DNA from: Chiloscyllium plagiosum
Taxonomy: Eukaryota
Direction of reading: 5' to 3'
NCBI RefSeq assembly: GCF_004010195.1
Contig: NC_057718.1
Location: 49,253,239-49,317,238 of the forward strand
DNA: 64,000 bases
The notes under the pieces were generated by a model. It did not search any database and had not been told where the DNA came from. It was given only the letters and a program-made list of their open reading frames with translations. The position numbers were made by a program, and so were the translations under genes. Positions 2,965 through 63,300 of the stretch are shown in pieces (the stretch's first letter is position 1; each line of letters starts with the position of its first letter).

Positions 2965-3212
2965 ACAAAATAAAGAACTGAAACAAAGATCTGAAGATCT
3001 GAAGCAAAGAGAAACCAAAATTGCTTAAGAAACTCAGCAGGTCTGGCAGCATTTGTGGAGAGAAAGCAGAATTAATTTTTCAAGACCTGCAACCCTTTGT
3101 AAGAACGCATTTCTAATGAAGTGTCACAGAATTCAAACATCAATTCTATTTTCTTTCCACAGATGCTGCCAGACCTGCTGAGTTTCTGAAGCAGTTTCTG
3201 TTTTTGTTTCAT
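2965..3212. mobile_element. Penelope-like terminal hairpin (family C), decayed hammerhead cores
   Basis: Inverted arms aactcagcaggtctggcagcatttgtggag / ttccacagatgctgccagacctgctgagtt; same family as 53655-53863. Confidence 0.7.
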
Positions 3213-3554
3213 ACAAAGTGATTACTGATTTTAGGAGGAACAGAAGCCAACTCAGAACAATATAAGGCACAACAATCATGCCCAAAGAGAGTGAGAAAGA
3301 AGGGTCTATTGATGATGATTGTGCAGTGATATTGAGTAGCAGTAACCAGCAACAAGACAACCAAGTTTTGAAACAAGTATGATTGAAAAAAATTCATAGC
3401 TATGCAGACAGATATACGATCACCAGATGAGATGAGTCATCAAACTCAAACTCTTATGTTATTGTTTGACTTGTAAATGTTGTAAACTCTGTTTGTATAA
3501 TTATTAAATTGGTAACCAGTGCCTATGAACAACTGTGTGTAGTGTGAAAGGGTG

Positions 3555-6643: not shown

Positions 6644-7028
6644 CCTGGTTTAAAATCTGTTTGCACATGATTTCAAACTTTTGTATTTTCTGCCCAATTG
6701 AAGAGAGTGGAAGAAAGTATAACTGGGGTGGGAGGTGACTTCAATTATGTTGGCTGCTTTCCCAAGGCAGCAAGAAGTATAGACAGAGTCAATGGGAGGA
6801 AGGATGGTTTTTGTGGTGGACTGGGCTGCATTCACAACTCCCTGTAATTGTTTGCAGTCTTGGACAGAGCAGTTGCCATACCAAGCTGTGATGCATCCGG
6901 ATAGGATGCTTTCTATGGTGCATCTATAAAAATTGGTAAGAGCCATTCTGGACATGTCGGATTTCCTTAGCCTCCTGAGTAAGTAGAGGCATTGTAATGT
7001 TGATGTGGATGGACCAGGCCAAATTGTT

Positions 7029-7235
7029 TCTGGATTAGTGGTGCTGGAAGAGCACAGCAGTTCAGGCAGCATCCAAGGAGCTTCAAAATTGACGTTTCGG
7101 GCAAAAGCATTCCTGATGAAGGGCTTTTGCCCGAAACGTCGATTTCAAAGCTCCTTGGATGCTGCCTGAACTGCTGTGCTCTTCCAGCACCACTAATTCA
7201 GAATCTGGTTTCCAGCATCTGCAGTCATTGTTTTT
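7029..7235. mobile_element. Penelope-like fold-back insertion (family A) with 16-bp TSD
   Basis: Arms 7029-7108 and 7123-7202 are reverse complements; TSD accaggccaaattgtt at 7013-7028 and 7236-7251. Confidence 0.85.
7109..7145 (+). ncRNA. Minimal type I hammerhead ribozyme motif
   Basis: CTGATGA(7113-7119)-A-GGGC-TTTT-GCCC-GAAA-CGTC|GATT; core intact, palindromic stem III (ACGT), weak stem I. Confidence 0.75.
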
Positions 7236-7383
7236 ACCAGGCCAAATTGTTAGTGATGTTTACTTTTAGGAATGTGAAGTTCTCGACCACCTCCACCTCA
7301 GCACCATTTATCCAGACATGGGCATGTCCTCCACTTCCTGACATCGATGACCAGCTCCTTTGTTTTGCTGACATTGAGGGAGT

Positions 7384-9150: not shown

Positions 9151-9843
9151 CAACTCCAACCAATCATGTTGGAGCTTGTCTGTTATTGCAGACTAGTATT
9201 GTAAGGCATTCTGTACCAGATCCTACAGCTTCAGGTTCTGCTTGTAACCTGGGAGAAGGAGCACACTGTTATGTATTTACCAAAATATAGGTGGGGGATG
9301 AAGTGGTAGATATCTTTAATGTTTATGCAGCAAAGGTCCAGGGTGTTTAGACCTCTGTGGGGGTCAGGAGGTGTGTTGGTGGTATCTGATAGCACACTCT
9401 TGAGTTTGGCCTAGTTGAAGTTACCGACTACAATGATCAATGCCTCGGGGTTTTCTGTCTCAAGGCTATTTGCTGTGGCGTACCTTTCATCAAGTGCGCT
9501 CTTCACATCCTCATGGGTTAGGATGTAAAGTGTTGTCAGGATAGCAGAAGTAAACTCCCACGGCAGGTAGTAGGTATGCTATGTCACTGTTAGATATTTT
9601 AGATCCGAGAAGCAGTAACTCCCCAGAGTCCTCACATCCAAACATCAAGAAGTGATGATCAGGAGGTAGACCCCACTTTCCCTTGCCTTGCCTGAGGACA
9701 CCGTGTGGTCCATCTGGTGGATTGAGAAGCCTTCAGGTTGTAAGGTACAGTCAGGTGTAGCAGGAGTGAGCCATGTCTCTGTAAAACAAAGCACACAGCA
9801 GCCTCTCAATTCCCTTTGGTAAGTGAGTCTAGCTTTAAGTTTG

Positions 9844-10152
9844 AGAGTGTGTTGCTGGAAAAGCACAGCAGGTCAGGCAGCATCCGAGGAGCAGGAGAAT
9901 TGACGTTTCGGGCCAGAGCCCTTCATCAGGAAATCCACACTCTCAACTCTAATCTCCAGCATCTGCAGACCTCACTGTCTCCTCGTTGATTTTAACCTTA
10001 CTGTGAAGCCTCTTCCAAGGATGCCTACCTTGAAGAAGTTCTCCTCCTCTCTCTACAAAGATCTCAGTGAGTCCCTCTCTCACTGGACTCCCCAAGCCCT
10101 TTCCTACACACTCTCAACTCTTATCTCCAGCATCTGCAGACCTCACTGTCTC
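9844..10152. mobile_element. Penelope-like composite insertion (family A) with 15-bp TSD
   Basis: TSD ctagctttaagtttg at 9829-9843 and 10153-10167; inverted terminal arm, then a ~48-bp direct repeat (9936-9983 / 10106-10153) flanking a putative ORF start. Confidence 0.8.
9897..9932 (-). ncRNA. Minimal type I hammerhead ribozyme motif
   Basis: Minus strand reads CTGATGA-A-GGGC-TCTG-GCCC-GAAA-CGTC|AATT. Confidence 0.72.
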
Positions 10153-12029
10153 CTAGCTTTAAGTTTGTCTGTCTTCTTTTCAATAGCTTGGACATTTGCC
10201 AGCAGTATGCTAAGGAGGGAGGAATTGAAACTAAGTTGTTTCAGTCTCACCCGCAGGCTGGTGCATCTTTCGCATTTCCTGGTTAAGTGGCTGTTTCTGA
10301 TCAGGCCCAGGAGTTGGTGCGGATGGTCTGCTGTTCTGGAAGGTAAGTGAGCATGTCCGATGGGATCCTAGGCATCGGTTGTGGTGTTGGGCATTCCAGA
10401 GGTCTTGTACTCGATCTGCTCGGGCCTCGATGTCAGGTCTCCATGTGGTTGGGTAGGGCATCATATCCATGTTGGGTCAACTTCACACAGCTAGGTTGCT
10501 GATTGAGAAGCTGATAAGTAGCTGGCGACTTCATTGTCGCAGAGGCGACAACCTTGGCCTTACAACTTGGCAAATGAGCATGTTAATCAGCTACACTCTG
10601 AACCATGTCTCGAAGTGTCAGAACTTGTTAGCTTCTGTTTCTCGTCTTGTGATGAAAGGTGTTTATTGTACAACAATCTTTTAATTAATCAGCACCAATG
10701 GAATTAGGAATGTACTGGTATATCACACAATCAATGTAAAAACACACAGTAAGTAGAGAAACGTCATGCAGGGGGTATACATATGACTGTTAGACTTATT
10801 TAAATAAATATGCTGTAAATTAAAATTACAACTTTGCCTTAAATAAAATTTACTGGCAAAAATCCTTCTCTCTTGAACTTCAACTGACAACTCAGATATC
10901 GCAGTAGATCAAATATAGTAAACAACCAATATTTCAGAGCTATAATTTTTGCTGGTTTATTGAGAGTGCTGGTTCATAAGGTGCCAGTTAAAACAAACTG
11001 GCTGTGTTTTGTATTTTGGGATTTGATATTCAAAATAGAAGCAGATGGATACGGATCAGACAAATCTGTGAAGAATTTTTTTTCAACAGGTCAGAAAGTA
11101 ATTCAGAACATTGATTTAATCCATTAATTTCAATGTGGCCACAGTCAAGTGCCTGGTAGGATTCCCTTTGGTTTTAATGGATAAAACGTTTACACTGTTG
11201 ATTTTATGACAGATAGGGTCAAGGCCAATAGTTCACATTTGACCTCTGTACAGAAAGTTCAAGATGTCGACACAAAAAAATCGGGAGTTGAATTCAGAAG
11301 CAGGTTTTAGTTTTCTCTGAGCGAGAGGAGCAAAACTTTAGTTCAGGGAAATCAGTTACTATAGGCAAAGTATCTAAGTTTTGTGAACTTTCTGAGGCAG
11401 AATAGCTTGGATAGAAATCTTCAAGTTGTTGGAACTGTAAAAGTTTACATTATCAGAATTGTGAAATGCCAGAGAGACCACAGTAAAGAGATCCCCACCT
11501 TTCACCCCAGTTTACTGAGAGGGTCTTGGCACACTTACCTGATGGACTTTGACACTGTAGGTTCACCATGTTACTAATGTCCAAGTACAGGGGCATATGT
11601 TCTGCATGGGGTTCAGCAAATTCCAATCCCCATCAGTGTCAGTGAAACACTGGACATTTCTTTCTTCACTTGCTGTAAACACATCTTCGTGATGCACTCA
11701 CCAGACTGTGTCTCTGACTCTGCTCCAGCTACAGTGCCCATTGAGATGACAGTCTCTGTGTTGATGAAGGGTGCATTTGAATGCCTTACCAGTGCATCCT
11801 TTGAGGGTTCTTAGACTTCATCATCAGAGGTGGGACTCATGCTGGACAGCTTTGAGCTCACTTGTGTTTAACTGTTGTGCATTTGTACATTTGCAGAAGT
11901 AAAGAGAGCATTATTTGAAGAAGAATCTCAAACACTTGTGTAAATATTATCTGGGAGTAGCTGTATATCTGAGAAGAGGAGACAATGATCCCCATTGGCT
12001 TTACTCAGGCTGATCTCTCTGTTGGTGCA

Positions 12030-13499: not shown

Positions 13500-13945
13500 A
13501 TCTTCCACTCATTGAGGGTCTGGAGATCAGGAAGGCATTGCCAGTCTGGACTTTGTTCTTCTTGTTTTGTGCCAACTTGTCCTGTAATGAGAGAAAGGGA
13601 AGGCTTGAGTGTGATGGGAATGTGTACACAAGCACTTGATGAGTGAGAAGCACAGTGCCCAGGAAGTGTTAGGAGATATGCAGCATTAGGGGAGTGAGAG
13701 CCCGTCAGAGCACACCATGTATCTGATGGTAAGGTCAACAGACCTATGTAAAATGGCTGTACAATGACACAGGTAGTCTGAATGATGGCACTGTCAGCGT
13801 GAGATTGTAATGAGAAGATGGTGGTACTTATCCTTATGTCACACAAGAGATCACCCATCCACTTTGTCACTGGGTCCTGCTTTTTTATTCTTGTTTGAGG
13901 CATTGACCTCCTGTTTGAACAGCTACCCAGTTCTGATGGGAGGCC
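13500..13945 (-). mobile_element. PIF/Harbinger-like Myb/SANT gene relic (two exons)
   Basis: Acceptor ctctcattacag followed by DKLAQNKKNKVQTGNA; upstream exon EVNA...MGDLLCDIR ends at a donor-like site; resembles the 41090-41700 relic. Confidence 0.45.
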
Positions 13946-13949
13946 TTCT

Positions 13950-14003
13950 TTTGTCTGGATGCTGCCTGACCTGCTGTGCTGTTCCAGCAATAAAGTTTCA
14001 ACT
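13950..14003 (+). mobile_element. Penelope-like terminal fragment (family A)
   Basis: ggatgctgcctgacctgctgtgctgttccagcaa matches the family A arms. Confidence 0.65.
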
Positions 14004-14084
14004 TCTTTTGTCTGTCAGCCTACAAATGATACTAGTAATGTGGGGGATGGCATTAGGCAGGAAATTAGAGATGCAGTAATCATG

Positions 14085-25012: not shown

Positions 25013-25391
25013 TCAAGGTTTGTGTGAAGATTTGTAGCTCGGATGCCAGTTACCATAGTTGTGGGTGTATTCGCTGAGCTGTGATGTTGATTTATAGAAG
25101 TTTTGTCCCCTGTCTAGGTGATATCTTCAGTGTTTTGGAGCCTCCTGTGAAGCACTGCTGCATTGTGTCTTCTGGAATTTATTTGATTCTGTTTCTCCTG
25201 CTTCGGATTGCCAGTTCGATTGTTCATTGTAGTGGCTGGTATATTGGGTCTAGGTCTATGTGTTTGTTGATGAAGTCCATGGATGAGTACCATGCTTCTA
25301 GAAATTCTAGAAATCCACAAACTCCATCAGCAGGGGACGAAACATCTACAAATCAACTTCTCAACTCAGCAAATATACCCACAACTATGGC
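25013..25391 (-). mobile_element. Penelope-like (Poseidon-type) 3' fragment with inverted terminal copy (family D)
   Basis: Minus strand encodes GIY-YIG C-terminus EFLEAWYSSMDFINKHIDLDPIYQPLQ*; inverted arms ~25052-25112 and 25331-25390; imperfect TSD agacttatcaagc / agatttagcaagc. Confidence 0.8.
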
Positions 25392-25407
25392 AGATTTAGC
25401 AAGCAAC

Positions 25408-26946: not shown

Positions 26947-27392
26947 TATTGTTAAAATGACACCTATTGTCAATGTTTCACAAATTATAGCTTATTGTAG
27001 GAGCGATTTGACATGTGTGTAAAATAAAAAGCGGCTCATTGTGAGTGTTGGTTCTTGGAAAAATGAACTAGATTTTGGCTTTTCATAAAATTGACATAAA
27101 AGCATGAGTAACTTCTGCACTAAGCTACGTACAGTCAGGAAGGAGAGATCACATTTGGAGTGTGACACAGCCCAAATAAATATAGAGTTCAGGGAATTTG
27201 GAGGCTGCATGGGAATTTGATACAGATGGGAAGAGGTGTTTTCTGCCAGCTTTATTGGTCCATAGTTTACATGGCTTTTTTTAAAAAACAGGATCAGGGA
27301 CCCTGCACAAGAGAAAGAGTGACCTTATAGGAAAATCTTAAGTTCAATGATTGGTGAAAACAAATTTAACTATCTATTATCAGATACTTTCA

Positions 27393-27430
27393 GATTCCTG
27401 ATGAAGGGCTTTTGCCTGAAACGTCGATTT
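27393..27430 (+). ncRNA. Minimal type I hammerhead ribozyme motif
   Basis: CTGATGA(27398-27404)-A-GGGC-TTTT-GCCT-GAAA-CGTC|GATT; G-U pair closes stem II. Confidence 0.7.
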
Positions 27431-27523
27431 TACTGCTCCTCGGATGCTGCCTGAACTGCTGTGCCCTTCCAGCACCACTAATCCAGAATCTGGTTTCCAG
27501 CATCTGCAGTCATTGCTTTTACC
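27397..27523 (+). mobile_element. Penelope-like single terminal arm (family A) with 12-bp TSD
   Basis: TSD tactttcagatt at 27385-27396 and 27524-27535; nearly identical to 7112-7238. Confidence 0.85.
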
Positions 27524-27614
27524 TACTTTCAGATTGAAAGTAAGAATGGGAAATATTACAAACTACAAGACCAGGAGGAAACTTCCAAAAATCAAATTAA
27601 GAACAAAGTAAATG

Positions 27615-31990: not shown

Positions 31991-31994
31991 TTTT

Positions 31995-34827: not shown

Positions 34828-34864
34828 TCACAAGCTTTCGGAGTGCTGCTCCTTCAGCAGGTGA
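34828..34864 (-). ncRNA. Hammerhead ribozyme motif, A6>C core variant
   Basis: Minus strand TCAC-CTGCTGA-A-GGAGC-AGC-ACTCC-GAAA-GCTT|GTGA; stem I TCAC/GTGA. Confidence 0.65.
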
Positions 34865-35002
34865 AGTGAAGAGAAGCACACAGGCACAGACCTTATAGGT
34901 AGAGAGATCAAAAGATCATACAAATGGTGTGAGCTCACACCACTTGTATGATCTTTTGATCTCTCTACCTATAAATCCTTTGCCTGTGTGCTTCTCTTCA
35001 AT

Positions 35003-35039
35003 TCATCTGCTGAAGGAGCAACGCTCCGAAAGCTTGTGA
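35003..35039 (+). ncRNA. Hammerhead ribozyme motif, A6>C core variant
   Basis: TCAT-CTGCTGA-A-GGAGC-AAC-GCTCC-GAAA-GCTT|GTGA. Confidence 0.65.
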
Positions 35040-35558
35040 TCTCAAATAAATCTGTTGGACTGTAACCTGATGTCATGTAACTTCTGACATTATTCTACTT
35101 GTGGCAAAGTATCTGGGTTTTTCCCAGTCTCATGACAGAAGACAGAAGACATTCTTGATGAACCGTTGGGATCAAAGCATTTACTATGACAGACACGGTA
35201 AACGACTGTCTAAGACAGTATTGCTGTTCACTCACAATTAGCCTTTTTTTTGTAGATTGAGGAGGGATTTGATTTCTGATACAGGATTACCATCCTTCTC
35301 ACTTGCCCCATGTCATTCTGAAAAACAAGTTTTGGGGGGAGAAAACCATATTTAGCTTTCCACCACAGATGCTGTAGACCTGTTGAGTTCTGATTCATAA
35401 AGGTGGTCTGAATTGGACAAGCAGTTGGTGCTTACCAGTCCAATCTGTCGCTGGTAATGCTTGAGAAGTAATTTTCCACATATCTGCAAACCCTCATACT
35501 GCGCTCTAGCCATTAGGCAATTATGTTTCTGGGTTTAGCTAAGCCAGGTGTCTCCATT

Positions 35559-36366: not shown

Positions 36367-37859
36367 CTCAACTGCCATTAATCAGCCTTTATGGAAACCA
36401 TATTTTTGCAAATCAGTGTCCCCATTTCAGGTGAGGGGGAGCTAATTGTTTTGCACAGTGACAGACATTTTGTCAAAACAGTGTTTCATCAATATAATTT
36501 ATCATGGAGAAGCATTGCAACTTTTAAAACTTAATAGAAAACTGAGACTGCTTAACTTTACTGTTGAGCCTAAGTTTTCTTTTGCCATACATTTCTCAGT
36601 ACTGAAAATGCACTATTTATAAATCCAGTTGGATTTATGATCTTCCCTGTAAATCATGATTTATTTTATCTGAAATGATTTAAGTATTTTCCTGTTGGAC
36701 TTTTTAACGTTCAAAAAAAAAATCCCCAAAGCGATTATGTTTAACTTGTGATCAGGATATCATGCTGTACTGCCTGGTTTTTATCAGTCAACAGCTAATC
36801 CAAATTTTAAAAGTCAGAACCATATTCAAAGCTGAAGTGACATGACTTACAATTGCCTTTCATTTTTCATACAGGATGGGTGCTTTGCTCTGTCGGCAAG
36901 GAGATGACACACTCTTGTGATACATGTACACCAGTTCCTGCAGTTTCCATCTGTGGCTTACCCCTGATTTAATACATGTTCTCATTGTGACTCAACATGA
37001 AAGAAAGAGCAAACCACTCACTAATGCATGGACATCACAATAAGCCCGAAAGTTCGTGTTGACTCTGGCTTACAAATACTGCTCCACATGTGGTATGTGA
37101 TATGCGGTCTCATTAACATGGCTTCCTCTTACAGCAGTTTTCCATTGCGCAGTCTTAAAAACATTAACACTTTATTCTGAAGTCAGACACACTCTACCTA
37201 AATCTGCTGAAATGAAGAATTTGTAATTTATACACTGAATGACGTTTCCAACTCTTAAGATCAATTATCATGAACAATAAACGTCTCTTTTCTTTTGCTT
37301 CTCTTTTTATGATGTATTTGCATTTTGAATCATTCAGTATGAACCGGAGGTGGGGATATTTTGAAGGCGGAGGAGGGAGTTTTCACTTTCTTCTCATGCA
37401 CTTACACTGTTTCGAAAGAAATAACTTGTGATTGGTGGCAAACAGACACAGGATTTATTGATCTATAGAACCTTTTATACTTCCTTGTATGAAAATGTAC
37501 ATAATTTTTCTGATCTATTCCTGGAATGTTGATAACACTGAGAAGACTACACTTATTGTTTGTCTCTGGTCAACTTAATGTGCTGGTATCAGTATATCAT
37601 GGGCAAATACTCCATCCTCTCCTATGATATTTGGTCAGATTAGGTTATTTGGTGCATAGAATATAACACAAAAATTTTTCACAAGTCAGATAATTTCTAA
37701 GTCCCATATCTGCAATGGAACAGTTTGGCTAGGGAACATCTAGTTTTGTTTTCAGGTCTTTGGCATTACAGTTAGGATGTTGTCAGTATCCAGTGTGTAG
37801 TCCTCACATGTCTTCTAGCTGAAACATGCAAAGTCCAATCATCCATTACACTTGCAAGT

Positions 37860-38025
37860 ACTTCAGGTCAGGCAGCATCTATGGAGAGAAATAGATGTAA
37901 CATATCAGGTGAATAGCCTTTCATCATAACTGATGAATGATCGTCAACCTGCAATATTACCTCCATTTCTCTCCACAGACACCACCAGAACTGTTGGGTT
38001 TTCCAGCTCTTCTCATTCTTATTTT
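37860..38025. mobile_element. Old Penelope-like hairpin with relic ctgatga centre
   Basis: ggcagcatctatggagagaaat...tttcatcataactgatgaa...atttctctccacagac. Confidence 0.6.
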
Positions 38026-40593: not shown

Positions 40594-40620
<27 letters not shown>

Positions 40621-40621: not shown

Positions 40622-40782
40622 TTAGCAATATGGCTGCCTGGGGATTCACACGTCCGTTCAAAGCCTCCCAACATCTGGATTTGCTTCTCATCTAATCACA
40701 AAATCTGTCTCTGGGCAGACAGCAAGAGTGGGAGTGAGAGAGCTTATGATGGGAGTAACTGGTGAAGCAGCATTAGAAGCAG

Positions 40783-43700
40783 AGGGCCTGAACTTCACAA
40801 GACATCAACAAAATATCTTTCGTGTCCACTTTCGAGGGTTTCTCTCTGCGAGGCCTAGATGGTATTTTCATGTGATCATCCCAAACTCATTAAATAGGTA
40901 CCATGTCACTTATGGGCTCCCCACCACCACCTTGCTGATTCTTCCCCTGCCAGTAGGAAGAAGCCAGGATTCCTGGCATTGTTATCATATTTAAATGGCC
41001 ATTGTGCACCGAGTCAAGCATGGGCAATCTTGAGCTACCTGCACAGTTTAAGACATTATCCGTGGACATGACAGACAAGGGAAATTGGCATCCAATTTTA
41101 AGAATAGGGGCCTGGAGATTCAGATGGATGGGGTGGGGCACAGGAAGGTTGTCCTCTTCCTGCAGGACTGTGTAGAGGAGGTCACAACACCAGACCCTGA
41201 TAACCTGCCACCCAGGTCAATGTGGTCTCAGTTATCTGGAGAAATGTCTAGAAATACCACAAGCTGATCAATGACCTTTTCTGTTTTGCCAGTGTAATTA
41301 CCACCCCTTCTCTCCCACTCACTCTGTCTCTTCTACTGCACCCACCTCTTACCAATGTTCATGCTCTATCACTTTCATTATTGCATACAAAATCTTCCCA
41401 CTTGTTGTCTCCCACCCTAAACTCCCACTTTTCTAACCCTGCATGACCTTTGAGCTGCTTACTCACTCATTCAAGACATCTCAGCACTTTTCCCCTGCCT
41501 GTACCAGATAATAAAAGCTGCATTACTCGTATCCATCTCATTCAATCTCTTTCTTTCCCCCATTGCAGGAGAAAGTAGACCATAGAAAGACTGAAGGTGC
41601 AACAGTGGTAGTTCTTCATCCCTAACAGGAGACGATCAGGGCTCTCAAGGGCCAGCACTAGAGATGCTGAAATATCTCTGTCCCAGCAAGCAAGTAAGAA
41701 GTACTGATCTTTGATGTGCTACTCTCCATTGGCCCTGATAGTGAATGCATTCTTAATATGCAAAAACCTCTGTATCTTGATTGCTACACATTCTCTCTTT
41801 TGTCTCCTACAAGTGCTAGTGGGACTTTGTGGATTCGTTCCTCCCATTGGCCAATCAGGTCGTACCGCCTACCTGTCTTCACCTATCCCCACTTCACCAC
41901 CCTGTCCCTGCCACTCCTTTTATCTGCAGTTTCCCCCCACACCCAGCCCCCAGTCCTGAAGAAGGGTTACACCTGAAACATTGACTTCTCCACCCCTCAA
42001 TATTGCCTGCCTTGCTGTGTTCTTCCAGCCTCCTGCTTTGTCTACTGCGAGATTTCCATGGTGGCCAAAGTCAAGATGGCTATGCCATAAGACACTTGCT
42101 CTTCCACCTCTGAGGAGGAGAGCACTGATGCTTAGGCTCTGCCCTGCACCCACAGTAGCTCAGAGACTGACACCTCCACTGATATGCAGATCAGGTTAGA
42201 GTACTGAGCACCTATTGGTGAACATTTCACAGCCACATCCCTGAAGCTGATCATGGACGAAATGCTGCCAGTCTCTGGCACTCAGAGGATTGTAGGAGAC
42301 CAGGCGCTTGCTCATCCCAGGCAGGGGAGAAACCCCTCACAATGTTGGCAATTCATGACTTTATTGGCATAGAGAAACAGATGTGTTTCAGCTTCAGTGT
42401 ATAGGTTTCAGTGTAATGTTGCCCTTTGAACAAGACAAAATAAAACTGTGGCATCCATGTTCATCTTACTCAATACTTCCGTTTGGCACATTGATTAAAA
42501 TTGAAGCCTTTTGCATCACAGAATGACTTGTCACACTGGATGTAGTTGTGGTTATTTTCTTCTCCAGTGTTACTTACAGCACAATGGAAGACAGCAGCAG
42601 TCGCTTATTAAGCAGTGACTTTGAGGCTCAGCCTCTTAACATTGGTGAACACCCAAATGTAAGCACTTCCTTCTTGGGAACCATCCCAGCAACCCCATAG
42701 GCTCTCTATGCCCACAAGACCCCACCTGACCCATCTATCTGAATCTTCATCAGCCTACTTTACCACCCTTAGTCTCGGTAAACATACCATCTCTAGAGAA
42801 CAATAATTTCCCACCACAACCCTTTTTAAAATAGCATCATAACCCCCTTTCTCATGTTATCTCTTTCACTTCAATGCTGTATCATCTCTCTTATATATTG
42901 CATTGACCCTTCACTGTTATATTCCTCTCTGTTTGCCAGCATTATTCCTCCAATCTCCACAATTAAGTTTCCCAGCAGTGGTCCCTGCAACTCCTTCTGA
43001 TTTTTAGTGGAGAGACTACCAAGACAGACCATACCCCAGCCCCTTCAGAACTTCACTGGATGGTCCTGAAGGAGCATGTCTATCGAGCACCCGATTGTGT
43101 TCATGTGACTCCCCAATTATGGTCCTGTGACTGCCTGGATTGGTTATACTGGACTCATAAACTGACCATGGCCCATTCCCCAAACAGAAGAGGGATGTTG
43201 GCAGACTGCCTGAGTGCCCCACTGACTGTGCCCAATCCCCTGAACTGATATCGGCTGCTGCCTTGACATACTCTACTGAGACTCTCTGCATGAAATGTGT
43301 CTCTCCGGACTTGACTGAGGACCACTCCCCAAAGACTTTGAGATACGGGTGTTCACTTGAAATAAATGCAGTGTCTTTGGCATGCATATGGCTGGTCCAT
43401 AATGCAGATGTAACAGTGACATAGCACAGTGCCATGAAACACTTGAGTGAAGACTACTGACTCTATGACAAGCTTCCTGGTTTTGCGTCTGTGCTAAAAT
43501 GCAAGACAGAACAATGTTATGAGTCTTTAAGCTACAGCTGAGAGAGCAAAGCACTAAAAGGCAAGGCAAAGCAGGGATGCTGTGGGCATTGAAATTGGTG
43601 GTAAGTGAGTGAAAACTAAGTGAGCAGACCTGAAATGCAATATGTGTGCTGGCTACCTGTGCACTTGTTCAAAGTAGTAGCATTAAATGGAAGGTGCGGA

Positions 43701-48415: not shown

Positions 48416-50934
48416 GACAGTACTCCAGTTGTGTGCAACTGCAGCAAGACACTCTTTGTTCTGTATTCAATTCCACTTGAATCAAACACCAACATGTTTT
48501 CTTTCTAATTGCTTGCTGCACCTACATGATAGCTTTTAGTGACTAAGATCAAGGCAGAGACCAATGGGTTTTTGGATAAGAAAGAAATCAAGGAGTGTGG
48601 GGCTAATATGGCTGAGATAGAAGATTAGCTATGTTCAAATGGAATGACAGAACAAAATCAAAAGGTGAAATGACCTACTTTTGTTCTTTTTCATTGTTAT
48701 TCTTATATTCTTGTTTCTTAGGCAGGACAGTCGAGCATAAATTGTTTCTGTCCATTTTATGCCATAAAGCACTTTCCCCAAAGCTCTCTTTTTGAATTTT
48801 CTCATGATTTTTCTGCCAAGTCTGAAATGAACTCTGACATATGTTATTGTGAGAAGCAGTGGCAGAGTAGATGTGAATTTCCTGAGTTTGCATTACTAAT
48901 TCACTCTGGGTAAATAAGACGGAGAGAGAAATAAGGCACAGCAGCTGTTGATTGACTAATTAAGGCAGAGTTGAATGTCTGTGAGGTTGGAAGAGCTTGA
49001 AAAGTTTAAGAGCAAAATATTATTGGTGCTGGAAACCAGAAACAAGCACAGAGAATTTTGGAGAAACTCAGGAGGTCTGGCACCATCTGTGGACAGAGAA
49101 ATTGAGTTATCTGTGAAGAAGATCTGAAGAAAATACATACCAGACTTAACTTTAACAGTGTTTTCTGTGCTTGTTTTGGAAAGTTTAAACTCTGACCTCT
49201 GCTGCTTGGCAACACATTTTCATAGAAGCTTTATTGGACTTTTGAATAAATGTGCCCGTATACGCTTCTGAGTGGCAATATCAACTTAGGACCTCTGAGA
49301 AACAGCGATGTCATGGATGAAGAGAAGTACAACATTGAGCAACCCCCTTTTACCAGCTCTGGATCCAAACCCTCCCTTAATTCCCTTTCACACGCAGGGT
49401 GCCACCCACAAGTACTTGAACTATTCACCTCTTCCTGATCTGACCCATCTTAACCTGTGCAGAACTGATCTCCTTCACACTTCTCCAGGTACTGACCCCA
49501 CCTTTGATGACCCAGGATACTACTCACAGTGCCTGACTCCTTGTTCACCCATTCCCAACTTGTATCACTTCCCCTTGCTCTGGACCTTATCCACTTTCCC
49601 TGTTCTGGACTTGAAACCCCTTCACCCACCTTAAACATAATGCCTCTTTATACTCGGCAAACTAATCTCTCTTCACACCCCAGGACCTGATACTCCTTTA
49701 GCCACTCTGGACTCACACCACCTTCCCTCACTTCCTCTATTCCTGCTCTGGATCTGATCTAGAATGCTCCAATGCTCTCTCTTGGCATGCTACCTACTAC
49801 CCCCGGCACCCTGCTTACCACATTCTCTATTCCCTGGAATCCTAACCTTACACTTACCTTGACTACAGCTGTCAGTGTGGCTGTCAGTGGTTCTGGAATA
49901 CAGCAGTTGACTGCCATGACTACCATGGTCTGCCTTCCCCCAACGGTTCTGCATTACGAGACAACTGACAGAATGGAAGAAAGGTTCTATATTCATGAAG
50001 GAGCTCCAACAGAATCTCCTTTCAGAGATGTGGAGTTCCCTTCTTACATTAAAAAAAATGGATAAAATGGTAACCTGTCTGAGTTTGCCAAGATTTGCAA
50101 AATCTGGCCATTAGTTTTTAATATTCTAACCTTTCTTACTTAGCTATTTACCCCTTGAATTTTCCAATTTAAATGGGGGGCTCCAGGTGTAGGGAATTGC
50201 CAAAGAGAATCTTCAATTTCCTGTGAAATTCCTTCAGATTCTGCAATGCTGGTTATTCATGCAGACCCCATGTCCAGTTCCTATGTTTGCTTCAGAAATG
50301 ATTATTTGGCCAGGCACGTTTACAGGATTGGACATAACCAACAGTTTTGACATATCCCTTTGAATAAGAAGTCAAAACTACAAAAAAAAACCCTTTATTG
50401 TCAGGGAGACTTTATTTTAATCATTAGCCATTTAGTATAATGTCAGCATCACAAATTTTCCAAAGAACTGTGATGAACATTCAACAAGGCATTAGAAGAG
50501 TAATATTACATATGGGTACCATATGCTCTATGGTGAATCCATTGAAGAATATGATCTGAAGGTTAACACAGTTTTTAACTCATCCAGAAGAGGAAGACCA
50601 GACACTTATTGAAAAGTTTGAATTCTCATAAACATCTATACATTTTCTCGAGAATGTTGCTCGTAATAAGGATATAATGGTAAATCGAAGAGCCAGTCAT
50701 AAATTCCCAATCTCCACTTCCAAGCAGGTCCTTCAACAGTTTCTCAGAATAGTTAATCAACAGGTAAAACTTCTGCTCAACCCAGCACAAGTTCTGAATG
50801 TTAAGACATTATGAGAGAAAACCCAAGGATGCTGGGTAATAGTGGATTACTAGCTTTCACTGCTGACTGCAGTTACAGCAGATGCCTCATCTACAGGACT
50901 GAGGTAGTCCTTCATTAAGAATAGTGAGATGGGT

Positions 50935-51036
50935 CGATTTTCCTGCTCCTCGGATGTTGCCTGACCTGCTGTGCTTTTCCAGTACCACTCTGATCTTGAC
51001 TCTGATCTCTAGCATCTGTAGTACCCACTTTCACCT
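50935..51036 (+). mobile_element. Penelope-like terminal arm (family A) starting at the hammerhead cleavage site; 8-bp TSD
   Basis: TSD agatgggt at 50927-50934 and 51037-51044; insert begins cgattttcctgctcctcggatg. Confidence 0.8.
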
Positions 51037-51607
51037 AGATGGGTTTTGCAGGCTAGTTTACTGTTTATCTTGAGCATTGTGTCACACAGAGAAATACACA
51101 GTCAAAGAGAGAAAAGGCTCTTGCGGTCATGTGGGTTTGCAAAAAGTTCTCTGATTTTATCATCATTTTAAAGGTAATCAGAGAGACAAACCGCAAATCC
51201 CCAGATTCTTAACTTGAGGAAAAGAAAACATGCTAGAATGCCTTCGAGAATCCAGAGATTCCATTTGAAAGGAATGAGACTCACTAATAAAAAGGCATAT
51301 GTCCAGTTCTACTGCTGACCATTCTACACAACAGGATGTTGATCTCATTAATGTGATTGAGTCATATTCACAGCAGTATAATCATCAGCTAGCTCAAAAA
51401 TGTTCCAATAAGGTCATCATGTGCAGATGCAAGATTAAGCTTGCATTTGCACCTGCTAATTCTGCACACCAGGTTGGGTACAGCAGAACATTAATAGTGT
51501 GGCGATGTAAACCTCCTTTGAGCATTGGAAGCAGTTTACAATTGGCATATGATGAGAGGGTGGAGATTCCAATATCACTTGGCCAGAAATCTTGGACACA
51601 ATGCAAT

Positions 51608-51754
51608 AGAGGAGCAGGAGAATCAACGTTTCAGGCATAAGCCCTGCCCAAAATGTTGATTCTCCTGCTCCTTTGATGCTGCCTGACCTGCTGCGCTTTT
51701 CCAGCAACACATTTTTCAGCTCTGATCTCCAGCATCTGCAGTCCTCACTTTCTC
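51608..51754. mobile_element. Penelope-like asymmetric hairpin (family A) with 11-bp TSD
   Basis: TSD cacaatgcaat at 51597-51607 and 51755-51765; arms ggagcaggagaatcaac / gttgattctcctgctcc; CTGATGA absent. Confidence 0.8.
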
Positions 51755-51886
51755 CACAATGCAATCGAGTCTGTTAAGTGTCACGAAAGGCAGAGCCTAG
51801 ACTGTGGTGGCTGAGAATATCAAGATCTACAGAAGCAGTCATTTCTCATGGCTGTGTGTCCACAATGCATAGACTAAAACAAAGGG

Positions 51887-51987
51887 CAAAGTTAAAAATC
51901 ACACAACACCAGGTTATGGTCCAATAGGTTTTGTGTGATTTTTAACTTTGTTCACCCTGGTCCAACATCAGCACCTCTACATCATAG
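51887..51987. mobile_element. Penelope-like short hairpin (family B-related) with 9-bp TSD
   Basis: TSD aacaaaggg at 51878-51886 and 51988-51996; arms caaagttaaaaatcacacaa / ttgtgtgatttttaactttg. Confidence 0.75.
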
Positions 51988-52394
51988 AACAAAGGGAATC
52001 ACTTATCTCCCCTCAATTTTGATATTGACCATAGGAATGTCTGGGAAGGGATTTATTAATGGGAAATCTTATCTAATTGTCATTGACTATTTTCTCAGCT
52101 CGCTTGCAGTCGAATGGCTTTACACCATAACCACTGAGATAGTTATTCAGACATTAAAGGAAATAGTTGCAATATATTGCATTCTAGCCAGATTGTCTCC
52201 AATAACAGTTTAGTTCACACATTTTGCAGAAAACTGTGGGTTTGTATATCTTACAAATTCCCTGACTTATCCAAAGATGAAACTGAAAGGAGAGCCAGAA
52301 CTATCAAAACACAAATAAAGAAAAATTAAACTTTTCAATTTCACTTCTGATTTTTAGAATGATACCATTATAATGTGAGAAGGTGATGGACGCA

Positions 52395-52752: not shown

Positions 52753-53654
52753 GCGATAGCATCTTTAATACTTGATATGTAGAAAGCTTTGAACTCCACT
52801 TCCCACTCCAAAATAATTGCTTACAGGCGAGACGTTCAGGATTATCAAACTGTTCAAGGCTGAGAATAGTACTGAAAATAGTAAACAGGCCTATGACTAT
52901 AACAAGAGATACCATACCATTGCACCTTTCCCATCCCGCACCACACCCATACCCAACCCATCCATTACCTCCTCACATTGTAATGGTGTAGCTCTATAAT
53001 TCAGAAATGCAGTTTGAAAATTTTCAGTTTTCTTTATTGGTGCTTTGATAGTTCCTTTCAGCTTCATATTTGGTTTGGGGACAGTATAGGGAACTGTCAC
53101 CTATCCTAGTGATAGAAGGGGAAATATTTATGAGTATGAGACCAAGACAAAGAAGGCATACTCATTCAGGAGATGATAATCAACAGAGACCTTACCTAGT
53201 ACATACTATGAATGGTACTCTATGATAAAAGAGGAGAAGTCTTATTTCTATTCATTTAAGATGTCGATGAGTCATATTTTTGGATGAATTAGATGCTGAG
53301 CAAGATATTTAAAAACTACTGGATACTACAAACCTCAATTCAGGCCATACAAATCAAGGTACAAGAGTTCTGAGAAACTCGACTGATCTTCAGATTCTGA
53401 CAAGAACAGGATTAGGAAGAGGTGGGAAGCCTCCTGACAGTTTGAAAATGCAATGTCAAAGATTTGGCAGCACGGGGGTGGGGAGATGGTGGCATGTAAA
53501 GAAATCAATGTGGAACCATTTTTGGTTGGCTATTTGAGGGAAATGTGTAGTATTAAGGTTTGGAAAGATTAATGTTTGCGATTCAGTGAGTATTACCTCT
53601 GGTAATGGGATTGCAAGGGAATACTTGGCAGAAAAAAAACAGAAGATTTGATTA

Positions 53655-53863
53655 CAAAAATCAAAAGAATTGTGAATACTGTAAATTGGAATTGCTGGAA
53701 AAGCTCAGCAGGTCTGGCAGCATCTGTGGAAAGAAATCAGAGTCAATATTTTTGCTCGAGTGACCCTTCCTCAGACCCTTCTCAGGAAGGTCACTCAATC
53801 TGAAACGTTAACTCTGATTCTTCTCCACAGATGCTGCCAGGTCTTCTGAGCTCTCTATTTTCG
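53655..53863. mobile_element. Penelope-like fold-back insertion (family C) with 10-bp TSD and two decayed hammerheads
   Basis: TSD gatttgatta at 53645-53654 and 53864-53873; the arms together suggest CTGAGGA-A-GGGTC..GAAA-CGTT|AACT. Confidence 0.8.
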
Positions 53864-53959
53864 GATTTGATTATAGCTTCAGCAGAGTCAGACATTCTTC
53901 TTAGTGAGTCTGAAATATTAATGGGATTAATAGGGTTAGAAAGATGAAACTGGGGAAGA

Positions 53960-54860: not shown

Positions 54861-56293
54861 AACCTATACATAGTTCCTTACTATATAATAAAATAGTTAC
54901 TTTTTGAACCTACCATTGAATCAGCAACCTCTCCAAAGCTAAACTAATCAACCAATAACAAAGTCCAGAAAAATATAAATATTTTGCACTGGCAATCTGG
55001 AACAAATTGCACTGCTCAATGGAAAGTAAACGACTTCCAGTTTGGGGTTGAACATGGGAGATTGTGTCAAAATACTACCTGATTCCTGTAGTTTGGAAAC
55101 TTATTTCTCTACTGCAAGGACTTAGCAGAAGAGAAATACTTGATTCATAATATTCAATCATGAGGAACAGCAGATCGAGTTTGTTCGTACCTAAAATTGT
55201 TCACATACCGGTCCTCAGTTCTTTACTAAATAATTGGCTGCAAAATTAGTCTTTGGTGTCACTGTTTTTGGCAAATCACGTTGGAATTTTTAACAAGTTC
55301 ATCTACCACTAAAATATATGGCGGAGGCAAGAAAACAGAAGAAAAGGCAAGTAAAAGATTTTAAATTCAAGCAACTACAGGAAAAGAAATGTTAGAAAAA
55401 GTAATATGAAGATAAAATTAAAATAAAAGTGAAGAGAAAATAAGAGGAAGAGGAATAACAGTAAATATAGATGAGGTTTTGAGGTTTTCTAAATTTAAAA
55501 TGCCATTCATTTCATATTCAGAGCAATCCATTAAAACTCTTTCCGAAGTTTGCATTTGATTATGTAAGCATTACCTTCTGGGTCAAAGAACTTGACTTAA
55601 AATTGTACAAAAGCCTCTTCCCTCTCCTTTGAGTGATTTTAGGATTGATACATTCCCCGCAATCCTTTTGGTGCCTGTTGGTGAGCTGAACGTTTTTTTA
55701 TGATTTAAAGCACTTTTCCCACAGGTATTCGATATTCAGTTGACCAGGCATCTTTGAATTTGATGCCTTTTTGATTAAAATGTTGTACCTCATGCCTTTG
55801 TGGTATATGTTATAACCCTACATTTGTACTTTTAAGTGGAATTGACTTGAAACCTATTTAATATTGAAATAAAATGTGTTGGTCTAATTTCTTTTCTAAA
55901 TGCGTTATTTTTTTCAATTATTAAGTATACTTACACAAAATATTCCAGATGGAATTAGCAGCTTATTTATAACTAGTTTTTGCCCAAGGGCAGCTTGCAA
56001 TGATTAAATATAGGACATAAATCAAGGAGACTGTAATTTGCATTTCTTTCTGCTTAGCTCATTGATGCTGTGACTTCAAAACAAAGTTTAATCCTTTATT
56101 TAATGATTTTGAGCATGACTTCTGACTTTAATTCCACTGGGAATCCATTATTGAGGTTTCCCTTAAACATATAAATGACATCACTCCACAGTTCCTTTTC
56201 TTGTGAACAACATACCTTTGTTGTCATTGTATTGAATGGTGTGTGATATGATTTTTTAAATCATTGTGGAACAATTAACTTTTTTGTCTAGAT

Positions 56294-56422
56294 TTGGAGA
56301 TGCCGATGTTGGACTTGGGTGTACAACGTTAAAAATCACACATCACCAGTAGTAACATTCCAAAAGCTAGTGTTTCCAAATTCCTGTTGGACTATAACCT
56401 GGTGTTGTGTGATTTTTAATTT
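56294..56422. mobile_element. Penelope-like hairpin (family B-related) with ~14-bp TSD
   Basis: TSD ttttttgtctagat at 56280-56293 and 56423-56436; arms ttaaaaatcacac / gtgtgatttttaa; relic ccaaaagctagtg. Confidence 0.75.
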
Positions 56423-56441
56423 TTTTTTGTCTAGATCTAAT

Positions 56442-56733: not shown

Positions 56734-56759
56734 CTATTTTGCAGAGGGAAGATTCATGC

Positions 56760-58074: not shown

Positions 58075-60310
58075 AAAGGTTAGCCTGGGAATCATCAACA
58101 TTGTTTCTGTCCCTGGTGAAATCTCATGGCATCAGGTTAATCACAGGCAAGGAAATGTCCTGCTGATTTAGTGCCTTCTGCGACAATTCAGTTGATGCAT
58201 CAGTACTCTCCATGTTAGGATCTGCATGAAAGAAGTACTCAACATGGTCAGGGCACAAAATATACACTGGGTAGAAGATCTTAATGTGTCTGCGATCACT
58301 AAGAATGACTGAGTAATGGCAGCGCTAACTGAGCTAGCCAATTCCTAAAGGACATAGCTGCTAGATGGGTTTGTGGCAGGTGGTGAAGGATCCAACAAAA
58401 GGCAAAAGTTACTTGACTTCATCCTCATCAATTTACTGGTCACATATGGCCAAGACTGCATTGGTAGGAGTGACAACTGTACAGTCTTTATGGAGCCAAC
58501 GTTCTGTGTTAACATTGATTATCCGCTACAATCTGTGGTTTAACATCATAAAATGCTAAAAGGGACATATTTGGAACAGGTTTAGCATCTCAAAACACTG
58601 GGTATGCAGGAGATGCTATATGCCATCATCAGCAGAATTACATCTAAACATGGTCTACAAAGACATGACTAGGTTTATCTCTCATTTTACCAGGTTTCCA
58701 GATGGATTTTGACAAGATGCTACACAGGAAGCTGTCAAATAAAATCAAACCCCATGATGTTAGGGGGAAGGTACTGGCATGAGTAGAGGATTGGCTTACT
58801 GGCAGAAGGCAGAGAGTGAGATAAAGGGTCTTTTTCAGGGTGACAGCTAGTAGTTGGTAGAGTTCTGCAAGGATCAGTGTCAGGGTCACAACTATTCACA
58901 TGCTACATTAGCGAGCTGGATGAAGGAACTGAGGGCATTGTTGCTAAAGTTAACACAAAGATAGATGCAACTACAGGTAGTGTTGAGGAAGCAGGGAGGC
59001 TGCACAAGGACTTGGACAGGTTTGGAGAGTGGGCACAGAACTGGCAGATGGAAAACAATGTGGGCTAATGTGAGACTATGCACTTTGGTAGAAAGAATAG
59101 AGGTGTGGGTTATTTTCTAAATGCCATAAGGCTTCACAACTCTGAAACTCATAGGGACTTGGGAATCCTAGTTCTGGATTCTCTTAAGGTTAACATGCAG
59201 GTAAACATGATAGTTAGAAAGGTAAATGCAATGCAATGCAAATGCAGGGCTAGAATACAAGAGTAGAGATGTACTGCTGAGGTTGTATAAGGCTCTGGTC
59301 AGACCACATTTGGAATATTGTGAGTGGTTGGGGTCTTATACCTGAGGAAGGATATGCTGGCATTGGACACGGTCCTAAGGAGGTTTCTAAAAATAACCCC
59401 AGGGATGAAGGGTTTGCCAAATGAGAGGTGATTGGGTACTCTGCTCTGTACTTGATGGATTTTAGAACAATAAAGGGGGGATTTGATTGAAACTTACAGG
59501 ATACTGAGAGGCCTGGAGAGAGTGGATATGAGAAGATATTTCCACCAGTAGGAGAGACTAGGATATAGAAGCACAGCCTCAGAGTGAAGGGACAACCCTT
59601 TAGAACTGAGGTAATGAGATATTTCTTCAGCCAGAGGTAAGTTAGTCTGTGGAACTCATTGCTGCTGACGACTGTGGAGGGCAAGTCATTGAGTGTACTT
59701 AAGACATAGATAGATTCTCGATTAGTAAGGGGATCAAGAGTTATAAAGAGTAGGCAGAAGAATGGGATTGACAGACATATCAGCCATGAGCAAATGGTAG
59801 GGCAAACTCGATGGGCTGAATGGCCAAATTCTGCTCCTATATGGCACAGTGTAAGTTGGGAGATCAATCCCATTTCAGTTGCAAGATGGAATGCCAGCAG
59901 CAGCAGGAGGTTTGCCTAAAAAATGAGATGTCAACTCTATGAAGCTACGATCCAGTATGTCTTGCTTGCCAAACAACGGGAAGAGCCATATCATACACAG
60001 AGCTTAGTGATCCTATGGCCAGTGTGTTAGATGGATGCTCTGAAGTATTGCTGCACCCTACTGATGAAAGGTAGCAGACAATTAGACAGTAGCAGTAAGG
60101 GAAGGTGTCACGTAACTTTTAAGATTGGAGAGCCCAAAACATCAGTGCAAAAGATAAGGTTGCAAAACTATCTTCAGTCAGAAGTGCCAAGTAGATCATC
60201 CCTCTCCTGATATTCCTAGAATCACAGATGACAGTTTTTAGCCAGTTCTTTTCAGTCCATGTAATATGAATGCAATAGAGACTGCAAAGGCTTTGTTCCC
60301 TGACAGTAGT
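58075..60310 (+). mobile_element. Endonuclease and linker region of the tRNA-headed LINE family, split by a CR1
   Basis: LGIINI..GEISWHQVNHRQGNVLLI matches 25770-25825; GLWQVVKDPTKGK; apparent continuation at 59850-60310. Confidence 0.6.
58685..59845 (+). mobile_element. CR1 LINE RT / 3' end
   Basis: QGSVSGSQLFTCYISELDEG, LHKDLDRFGEWAQNWQM, LYKALVRPHLEYC, 3'UTR gggctgaatggccaaattctgctcctat. Confidence 0.85.
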
Positions 60311-63300
60311 CTGGCACTAAGTCTGAAGACTTGTGTTCCAAAATTAGCCTCATTCCTAGCCAAGCTGTTCCAATATAGTTAGAAAATGGCCTGCATTTGG
60401 CAATGTTAAAATAGTACAAGTACATCCTCGCTAATAAACCAGCACAAATACAATCCAACCAAATACTGCCCTGTAATTCAATTTTCCCAAACGTCTCATA
60501 ATAGCTGATATCAGGGCCTGAGAACATGACACCCCTCATGTTTGTCCTGATGAGCACAAGAAGAAAAGCATCATGTTTCTGTTTGCAGCCGGGATATTAC
60601 TGAACAATATTTGAAAACAAGTCACGTAAAGAAAATACAGGGAGAGATTATGGTCAAAAAAGATAGTTTTTAAGGTGGTGAAATTTAGGAAGGGAACTCC
60701 AGTGATTTGGGTCAAGGCAGCAGAAATCACAAGAGCCATTGGTAGCGCGATAAAAATTGGAAGTGCACAGAGAATGTGAAGGTTGAAAGTTATTTAAAAT
60801 CCTGGAGACAGTCCGGAGTACGCAGCAAAAAAAAGTTACTCGTGCACTGCAATATTTGGAACATTATGGGTTGTCAACAGGACAAGATTGGTTTGCAACT
60901 TTCTGATGGCTGTGAAAATGCCAAGATTGGAAATTGTTAAATCGCAGAGATCAGAATTAATAAAAAAGTGAAAATTTCTGCTGTCTTATTTCTGGTAGCA
61001 CTTAATTTTCTTACAGATTTCCCCTTTGTGGAATTAGATGCTAAAGAAATATGTAAAGAATGTAAATGGAGTGTCCTTCAGGCTTTAACTGCATTCCACA
61101 GATTTGGTGCTAAAGATGATATATGGTAGTGTCATAAACAATAAATTTTGAGCATGCTTTCTCCTCAATATCATTCATGTATGACAGCACAGCAGCATGA
61201 AGCAGTATAAAAATTTGAATTATAAATCATGCTGGTAAATAACTCACTCTTAATATTCAAAAGATGTAAATGGAAGTATGACTTAGAAGTTAGATTTTAC
61301 ATAATCTGTCACTGATTCTCAGTGAATATCTAGTGACAAATGCAACAGTACAACCGAAGTGAAAAAATATTTTATTTGTTTGATTACTTGTAATCATTTC
61401 AAATAAATTAGTATTTGAACTGTAAATTTCTAAAGTCCATACTTTAAACTTTTTAAAATTTAAATGCTCTCCAAACCATGTCTTTAGCATTTCTAATAAA
61501 TCTGCTGTAATTAATATATCAGACATTAATGCATTGATTTTGGCATATTTTTGTTGTATAATTAGCAATGACATCTATATGTGGCAGAAAAGTGGAACAT
61601 AAACCACTTTAACCATAAAATTGCAATGAAGCTGCTGCATGCTTCACTGGTGTTACCACATGGACAAAGCATCTTTGAAGTAGCCAGCATTGAAATCAGA
61701 AATCACGCCCTTGTTAATCAACCCCAGAGCCTGGACATGGTGCAACAGTCCTTCAGTTATCCTTTTCTGAGTGACTGTACTTGAGCTCTAAACCGTACCA
61801 TTCAGAGATATACACAACCTTTTCCACTACTTCCATTAGGAAGGTGGCACATTCTCATCCATTGCTTATTTTTCTTGTTCTAGCGAATCATCTATTGTCA
61901 ATCCTGATTAATCATATATATATTTCTTTTGTTTGAATAAGTATAAGCTAGTACATGGGAGAGAGAGTTACATGTACATTATATATATAAAATGCCTTAG
62001 ATACTTCAAAAAACATTCTAGTTAATGAAATACCTTTGAAGTAAAGCCAAGTTGCTGTAAAGTTGGGAATTCAGCAGGCAATTTATGTCCATTTTGTCAT
62101 CAAAGTAAAAATTGCACAGTTGTCTCTGTGGAACTCTAGAGCACTTTTCCTTCTCCCCATTTACTTTATCTTGTGCATTAAGCTGGTGTTGCTTCCTGAA
62201 TATTGAGATACCTGTTTGGTGTATCTCAGACTCAGGGTGTCTGTACATACATTGCTTACTCTTTAGAACTTCGTTGACTATTAATGTACTGTAATGTTAC
62301 TTTATTTCAACTGTACATGGTGGATTATCAAATGCACTACTCTAATGTGATGTCCAAGAACTCTTTCTGTACACACTCATTCTAGACGAATGGCTTCAAT
62401 TTTATTAAAGTCAAATTATATCATCAGCTACGTCATCATTATTTACATGAATGTCATGACCCCACAGCTTCCAGCATGCTGGTCCTGCTCCTTTCTGGAA
62501 TATGATTCATGAAACAGTCTTTTGGTATCTTTGTGAAATGGCTTGTTTCCTCATTCAAAGTTGAGCTTGACTCCAATCTCCAGTTAGGGGCTACTTCCCC
62601 TTCCTAACCTAAAGGCACAGCCAACATGTTCACTGAACTTAGCTAACATACTACGGTTCAAATTGGAGAGATGGCTAGACAGATTGTCTAGACAGATTGT
62701 CTAGTCTGCTTCTGTTAAACACTGACTGAAGAAACTGTAAAGTATCATTAAAATAAAACTAGTGTGGAATCATTTGCCGTGGTATTGTCAGGTAAAGTAA
62801 GATTTGTCACACAGGTTAAAAATGGTTATGTAGTTTGGACATTATATAATCATTCAGAATGAAATATATCAAAATAGATTACATTATCAATCCACAAGCA
62901 TGGGTTTCGCAGTTCATGCATGAAAAATGGAAGAAGTTATTTAAACTCAACAGTGGTTTATAGTTCATTTTTAGCATAAATTACAATTGCCATTGTTAAA
63001 TGCACCATCCACTTCCATCTTTCAAATGCAGACAATCTTGCAGAAATGCCTAAACTGAAATATTTTAAATAAAGACATGAGTATACTTAAACAATAATCA
63101 ATGTAGATTGCTTTCAGGTCAAAAATTGTTCAAGATTCAGATGTATTAGTAATTCCACAGGCAATACATAAATATGTTTAATATACACTAACATCACAGG
63201 TTAAGTTATGTATGAGTACGTACATTTCATGTGTTGAGTGCTCCTTTCACACCGAAGCTCTCTATAATATATGTAGTTGGAAAAAATGTTAATTGAGACC

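Follow-up and report, generated by a model that had tools for sequence, protein, structure and literature searches.

The DNA analysed here, hereafter the window, is a stretch of 64,000 nucleotides from the Chiloscyllium plagiosum genome (contig NC_057718.1, positions 49253239-49317238; genome size 3.56 Gb), in which 27 arms of hammerhead-related repeats form ~16 insertion units that fall, by BLAST of their 3' parts, into five repeat groups (A/B, C, D, E and F). These units are very probably 5'-truncated insertions of the hammerhead-bearing pseudo-long terminal repeat (pLTR) of protein-coding Penelope-like elements (PLEs), made most likely by the element's own reverse transcriptase (RT) and endonuclease, and decaying neutrally since. 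An earlier note on this DNA had described five families with unrelated flanks; the five groups are indeed distinguishable, however, a downstream block is common to A/B, C and D and is missing only from E and F.

A genomic sample of 1.047 Mb, consisting of 464 kb around the window and 60 scattered 10-kb stretches, contains 325 arms, 134 of them in head-to-head pairs. At ~310 arms per Mb the genome is an unusually rich record of PLE insertion, and scaling to its full size gives about a million arms and ~190,000 descriptor-intact hammerhead cores, an extrapolation in which 44% of the sample is one region. Each query gave 981-2915 first-look candidates, 40 of which were scored, and the small repeat library used accounts for ~32% of the window.

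The hammerhead motif and its families

Positions in the motif are numbered from C3 of CUGANGA, set to 0, and the predicted cut in groups A and B follows +27. Our strict descriptor (CUGANGA, 0-1 extra nucleotide, stem II of at least 3 bp, GAAA, palindromic NN, UH) allows the 1-nt insertion and identifies three distinct sites in the window (7113 plus, 27398 plus and 9929 minus), compared with a mean of 0.035 and a maximum of 1 in 200 dinucleotide shuffles. The 1.047-Mb sample contains 55 distinct sites (67 rows) vs 0-2 rows in 10 shuffles, i.e., a sample-based estimate of ~50 descriptor-intact cores per Mb genome-wide. A scan of the window with Rfam, a check proposed in the earlier note, gave no hammerhead covariance-model match at E ≤ 5 and returned hairpin look-alikes only.

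Seven hammerhead sites had been listed in the window, and all of their coordinates and stem II sequences are correct; however, only three of them keep both core and palindrome, the other four having one or the other damaged. The site with C3 at 7113 is the only copy with wild-type core, stem II and palindrome together with the family-consensus helix I (AUUC/GAUU, with a U-U mismatch). Its hammerhead (7109..7144, plus strand, predicted cut after 7140) belongs to a group A, Neptune-type, two-armed insertion (7013..7251) with a short minus-strand arm (7029-7108), a long plus-strand arm with tail (7109-7238) and a 16-bp target-site duplication (TSD; 7013-7028 and 7236-7251). The second intact core, listed at 27406 and with C3 at 27398, lies in a group A solo stump (27385..27535, plus strand, approximately -4 to +127) with a 12-bp TSD ending in ATT microhomology; its stem II, GGGC/GCCT, turns the conserved G10.1-C11.1 pair into G10.1-U11.1. 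The third, listed as 9910 minus and with C3 at 9929, shows C-A in place of the first helix I pair and is carried by the minus-strand arm (9842-9932) of a group B insertion (9829..10167, 15-bp TSD), whose plus-strand tail is present in two copies (9935-9983 and 10107-10154).

Among the damaged sites, 35015 belongs to an inverted pair whose two arms both read CUGCUGA (A6>C) in the core; the pair is a group E, Neptune-type, head-to-head unit (34733..35101, centre 34933/34934, cores at 34860 minus and 35007 plus, 11-bp TSD). The site at 41964, in a group C stump (41830..42049, plus strand, C3 at 41956, helix I AGUC/GACU), has a non-palindromic stem III, ACAU. The site at 53764 minus lacks GAAA; it is the minus core (53774) of a group D head-to-head pair (53645..53875) with a decayed plus core and a marginal 12-bp TSD with one mismatch. 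The group F site at 25100-25130 minus combines G12>A with a broken palindrome (stem III ACUU), and is part of a Penelope/Poseidon-type 3' end (25013..25392, minus strand, core at 25130) with degenerate endonuclease C-terminal coding at 25135-25330 and a short plus arm at 25331-25392. Two further candidates were rejected: the CUGANGA at 2991 is not a hammerhead core, and the plus-strand CUGANGA...GAAA at 60547..60575, considered as a sixth family, is single-copy in the genome, fails the strict descriptor and is a chance occurrence outside the system.

The core CUGANGA/GAAA/UH, with one unpaired nucleotide before stem II, is the majority sequence in eight of eight subfamily bins. Stem III has no loop 3 and reads ACGU or AGCU in the family majorities when CpG decay is allowed for; its reported self-complementarity holds for the families and fails at 41964 and 25130. 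Helix I occurs as AUUC/GAAU, AGUC/GACU, AGUU/AACU, UCAC/GUGA and GCA/UGC, and stem II as GGGC/GCCC, GGGU/ACCC and GGAGC/GCUCC; compensatory changes separate the family majorities in helix I, stem II and stem III, in agreement with the earlier observation that the stems stay paired despite sequence change.

The motif is the minimal type I hammerhead already published for PLEs, as the earlier note had recognized, but it is not atypical, since an additional nucleotide between 9 and 10.1 and a palindrome at 15.2-16.2 both count among its standard features (PMC4209133). With the minimal hammerheads described in that paper for metazoan PLE pLTRs it shares, besides these two, the type I topology, the missing loop 3 and the G10.1-C11.1 pair, and the genomic setting is likewise one in which a genome holds many consensus families, most motifs stand singly in truncated PLEs, and some are paired on opposite strands. 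The host group differs, no shark being named in its abstract, results or discussion (its supplements may list shark motifs), and the ~190,000 extrapolated intact cores compare with ~4,000 in coelacanth and ~9,000 in Xenopus, as counted with different descriptors (PMC4209133). What is added to the catalogue is a set of shark families within a known association of ribozyme and retrotransposon. Groups A and B1 depart from the published motif in that their helix I consists of 2 bp, a U-U mismatch and 1 bp only. The subfamilies with this mismatch are those that are most abundant and look youngest, whereas helix I is fully paired in B2, C, D, E and F; a weakened ribozyme thus seems not to have limited the spread of A and B1.

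Coding linkage and insertion anatomy

In groups A, C, E and F, long copies run on into PLE coding sequence, with RT and endonuclease frames upstream. Pfam matched 1 of 14 fragments upstream of long copies (L026, GIY-YIG above the Pfam cutoff), and five long-frame loci were examined, of which three (L303, L305 and L306) have a usable structure. L303 holds a readable frame of 724 aa in which RVT_1 (E 2.8e-6) and also GIY-YIG (E 6.5e-4) score slightly below cutoff, with the linker CHRRNCKTC between RT and endonuclease; a group A pLTR whose core is intact lies 3' of the frame. In L305, RVT_1 scores above cutoff (E 1.3e-9), the linker is absent, and a group F pLTR stands at both ends in inverted orientation. 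L306 shows a YIDD motif and a CxxxxCxxC linker (CHSKHCKTC) followed by a group E pLTR, with zero Pfam matches. Group C is tied to PLEs by translated motifs, and its endonuclease end resembles that of group A; a PDB sequence search with the Neptune frame gave no matches. Clades were assigned by the CX2-5CxxC linker criterion (PMC8557442) rather than by phylogeny: by this criterion A and E are classed as Neptune-type and F as Penelope/Poseidon-type, and groups A-C and E are together classed as Neptune-type.

The PLE origin proposed earlier is thus borne out by family structure and by linkage to RT/GIY-YIG coding sequence. Our data do not support a separate class of non-coding insertion units, however: in A, C, E and F the long copies extend into PLE coding sequence, and one and the same subfamily can hold short as well as long copies; the units are better described as 5'-truncated PLE insertions. 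A related proposal would make the short units SINE (short interspersed nuclear element)-like or retrozyme-like non-autonomous elements, derived from short master RNAs that start at helix I and borrowing the PLE protein. The sharp shared 5' end and the fixed 3' ends, which give a stereotyped unit of 95-130 nt, would fit such an origin, as would the near absence of long copies in group D and the derivation of animal retrozymes from PLEs in a recent preprint (10.64898/2026.07.22.740005). We nevertheless regard it as unlikely, given the shared subfamilies, the continuum of longer truncations up to the open reading frame (ORF), and the junctions of two-armed units, which differ from copy to copy. 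Non-LTR retrozymes resemble the present units in being short, non-coding, PLE-related carriers of a type I hammerhead (PMC7229834; preprint 10.64898/2026.07.22.740005), but they are tandem repeats, whereas the units here are solo or head-to-head, with TSDs and coding long copies, and no tandem head-to-tail hammerhead repeats were found at the window units. Group D was also considered as a fixed palindromic miniature inverted-repeat transposable element and rejected: with a half query, the inverted arm accompanied ~1/3-1/2 of 30 matches, and the junctions varied.

Truncated PLE insertion would also account for the anatomy of the units. In A/B the 3' ends are bimodal (+80-90 and +120-127), and the ~35-40 nt between the two ends correspond to the published optional tail. 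Two-armed A/B/E units pair a long with a short arm in 49 of 56 cases and never two long arms. TSDs with a score of at least 11 (11-16 bp) flank 7 of 16 window units vs 1 of 300 mismatched-flank controls, and with a score of at least 8 they flank 10 of 16 vs 14 of 300; the reported 8-16 bp duplications at most units are therefore convincing for seven and possible for three more. Solo copies have TSDs of 8-24 bp in 25 of 140 cases vs 0-5 per control round.

Heavy 5' truncation, an inverted, head-to-head, 5'-truncated copy, a one-ended tail of 30-40 bp, TSDs of ~8-16 bp and the Neptune CX2-5CxxC linker are all shared with published endonuclease-positive PLEs of the Neptune and Penelope/Poseidon types (PMC8557442, PMC3846280). 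Two 3' ends a tail apart, corresponding to two internal RT start sites, are likewise described for the Anolis Poseidon element PAc (PMC11167929), from which the system differs in that most copies are Neptune-type and known here from sequence alone. By analogy with PAc, the endonuclease would nick both target strands, and reverse transcription would start internally at two sites downstream of the hammerhead (PMC11167929). Priming from both ends would then yield two-armed head-to-head units. The two 3' ends, the combination of long and short arms and the TSDs fit internal initiation and double nicking. The ribozyme, conserved in master elements, would act as a dimer on PLE RNA, and the scattered copies would be passengers, probably with no effect on host RNA.

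In the 1.047-Mb sample, group F has no short head-to-head pairs among 20 arms vs 134 of 305 Neptune-type arms, and the Neptune and Poseidon-type clades seem to resolve insertion differently.

Where the 5' ends stop

For counts of 5' ends, arm asymmetry and core decay and for the cap-G test, 40 further stretches were added to the sample (total 1.43 Mb). Among 163 A/B/C copies, 50 have their 5' end at -7..+2 (mode -4), whereas the flanking rate predicts 10.3. Group E shows the same concentration (30 observed vs 3.6 expected at -10..+2), as does the helix I edge of group D (9 vs 2.0), while in group F the excess is not significant (2 vs 0.6 in 19 copies). The A at -4 is the first base of helix I, four nucleotides before CUGA; of 50 short solo A/B/C copies 37 retain it, position -5 being random, and in groups A, B, C and D it stands in an initiator-like context (consensus YYANWYY). 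The Penelope pLTR holds an internal promoter (PMC2377424), and an initiator-like motif has been noted in a rotifer pLTR (PMC3846280).

The pile-up at the edge is read most simply as run-off from an internal RT start to the RNA 5' end, and it likely marks the start of the element RNA. That many cDNAs of the Neptune-type groups reach the RNA 5' end in this way, with helix I beginning at that end, is a possibility for which we judge the case nearly balanced. More tentatively, the Neptune RNA itself may start at this initiator-like A, in which case promoter start and ribozyme would coincide, and the roughly one million short stumps may be run-off cDNAs of uncleaved RNA, begun at two internal RT start sites. 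If so, the stumps would record, in fossil form, where the PLE transcript starts, and cleaved RNA would not be a preferred template.

Stalling of the RT at the folded end of the ribozyme, or joining through 1-4 nt of microhomology with AT-rich target DNA, could also place ends at helix I, and this is a real possibility, although we would not favour it. In many cases the TSD shares 1-4 nt with the element's ATT/TC, and the Anolis PLE endonuclease is reported to prefer 5'-ATT-3' (PMC11167929). An excess of cap-derived G, which a full-length RNA might leave, is absent: of 23 short solo copies 7 carry G at -5 (p = 0.17), and no two-armed copy does. Groups E and D, however, show the edge pile-up without ATT at that place, group F has the same ribozyme fold and no significant pile-up, and A(-4) has its initiator-like YYANWYY context in groups A-D.

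The predicted cut leaves no footprint. A/B/C ends at +26..+30 number 7 vs 9.9 expected; at the cut site of the other groups, D ends number 3 vs 4.0 and E ends 2 vs 2.4, and F likewise has no excess. PAc agrees in this respect, showing no genomic or RNA trace of hammerhead cleavage in the published account (PMC11167929). End statistics of this kind bear cheaply on two points, the start of Neptune RNA and the use of cut RNA as template; here they favour uncut RNA starting at helix I, in agreement with in vitro insertion without cleavage. We found no counterpart to the single-nucleotide pile-up in the literature on endonuclease-positive PLEs, nor any paper on shark PLE hammerheads, in a search that did not cover subscription journals, Repbase or Dfam.

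Several observations weigh against the account given above. For group D no link to an ORF was seen, the longest upstream stretch common to its copies being ~200 nt, so that only the downstream block shared with A-C connects it to PLEs. Stops, frameshifts or N stretches interrupt the long copies examined, none of which yielded a complete, intact pLTR-ORF-pLTR element; under strict criteria a TSD is lacking in 115 of 140 solo copies. As to the RNA-start step, the missing cap signature and the frequent junction microhomology tell against it, and some edge ends may represent rare subfamilies that have no long reference, although a TSD stands at the edge in 12 of 28 such A/B/C copies.

Fate of inserted copies and neighbouring repeats

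Decay of the ribozyme after insertion was followed in the 99 A/B/C copies that span the core, out of 174 collected (75 non-spanning copies were dropped). Non-CpG changes affect 67 of 990 core bases vs 196 of 2376 non-core bases (p = 0.16), and by this comparison of rates no selection on cores after insertion is detected in these copies. CpG sites in stem II, G12 and the palindrome are changed in ~15-23%, and core and palindrome are retained in 32 of the 99. Because the core decays as fast as non-core sequence, the conservation is one between families and not one maintained after insertion.

These results bear on the suggestion in the earlier note that sense copies within an intron dimerise and cut host pre-mRNA. 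The density of ~50 descriptor-intact cores per Mb makes encounters conceivable, and dimer cleavage of such motifs, though low, has been published (PMC4209133). On the other hand, Pfam found no match in 300 of 325 stop-to-stop frames of at least 45 aa from unmasked window DNA, a search that short exons would escape. The arms show no strand bias over 464 kb (72 plus and 73 minus). In the window a distance of 20 kb separates the two intact plus-strand cores, one of which is bound in a hairpin; for two-armed units the predicted fold is a long hairpin that would hide the ribozyme, and the 7113 hammerhead sits inside a predicted fold-back of ~-166 kcal/mol. A double-hammerhead fold was never the predicted minimum in eight subfamily examples (0/8), a nearest-neighbour result that is uninformative on activity, and the Anolis PLE hammerhead cleaved only with PLE protein (PMC11167929). 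Three RNA runs compared with 34000-44400 (10.4 kb), using 2-6% of raw reads, gave only partial matches at repeats and none on unique sequence, a weak test that does not demonstrate silence; one run gave only repeat-derived partial reads and one gave none, and since all reads match partly and at repeats only, they come from other copies. Host pre-mRNA cutting is accordingly unsupported, and we consider it very improbable.

Outside the window, a group D stump (L143) lies in sense orientation just inside the intron that follows a putative penta-EF-hand exon; the flank ~40-150 nt upstream of the copy resembles what we take to be penta-EF-hand coding sequence.

The remaining units of the window are mostly fragments. 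Group D is represented by a head-to-head pair at 2958..3216 (arms 3006-3097 minus and 3112-3210 plus), with decayed cores and no convincing TSD, by coreless minus-strand fragments at 31703..31767 and 49005..49112, the latter beginning near +29, and by an old D-like head-to-head remnant with decayed cores at 37856..38007. A plus-strand group A 3' fragment at 50927..51044 (8-bp TSD) has its 5' junction at +25 to +27, beside the predicted cut. Group B contributes a plus-strand 3' fragment without hammerhead at 13945..14014 (13-bp TSD) and a two-armed insertion truncated within stem II at 51597..51769 (15-bp TSD, one mismatch), and group E two-armed fragments at 51878..51998 (coreless; marginal 11-bp TSD with one mismatch) and 56280..56434 (no full core; 12-bp TSD). 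The segment 9984-10106, between the two tail copies of the group B insertion, resembles sequence 3' of the tail in L007 and is, judging from this likeness, probably a rare piece of Neptune element 5' body; one of its frames reads ...MPTLKKFSSSLYKDLSESLSH, possibly an ORF start.

Other repeats surround the PLE units. Broken RT frames of long interspersed nuclear elements, presumably CR1/L2-like, occur at 478-900, 14473-15919, 16714-17034, 17551-17952, 47762-48103 and 59250-59915. Further non-LTR RT fragments, which we take to be Rex/Babar-like, lie at 6650-7000, 7614-7955 and 12051-12594, the PLE unit at 7013-7251 being inserted into one of them. A SINE-like repeat that is abundant and presumably HE1-like has copies at 6154-6995, 28278-28920, 30710-31255 and 56438-56744.

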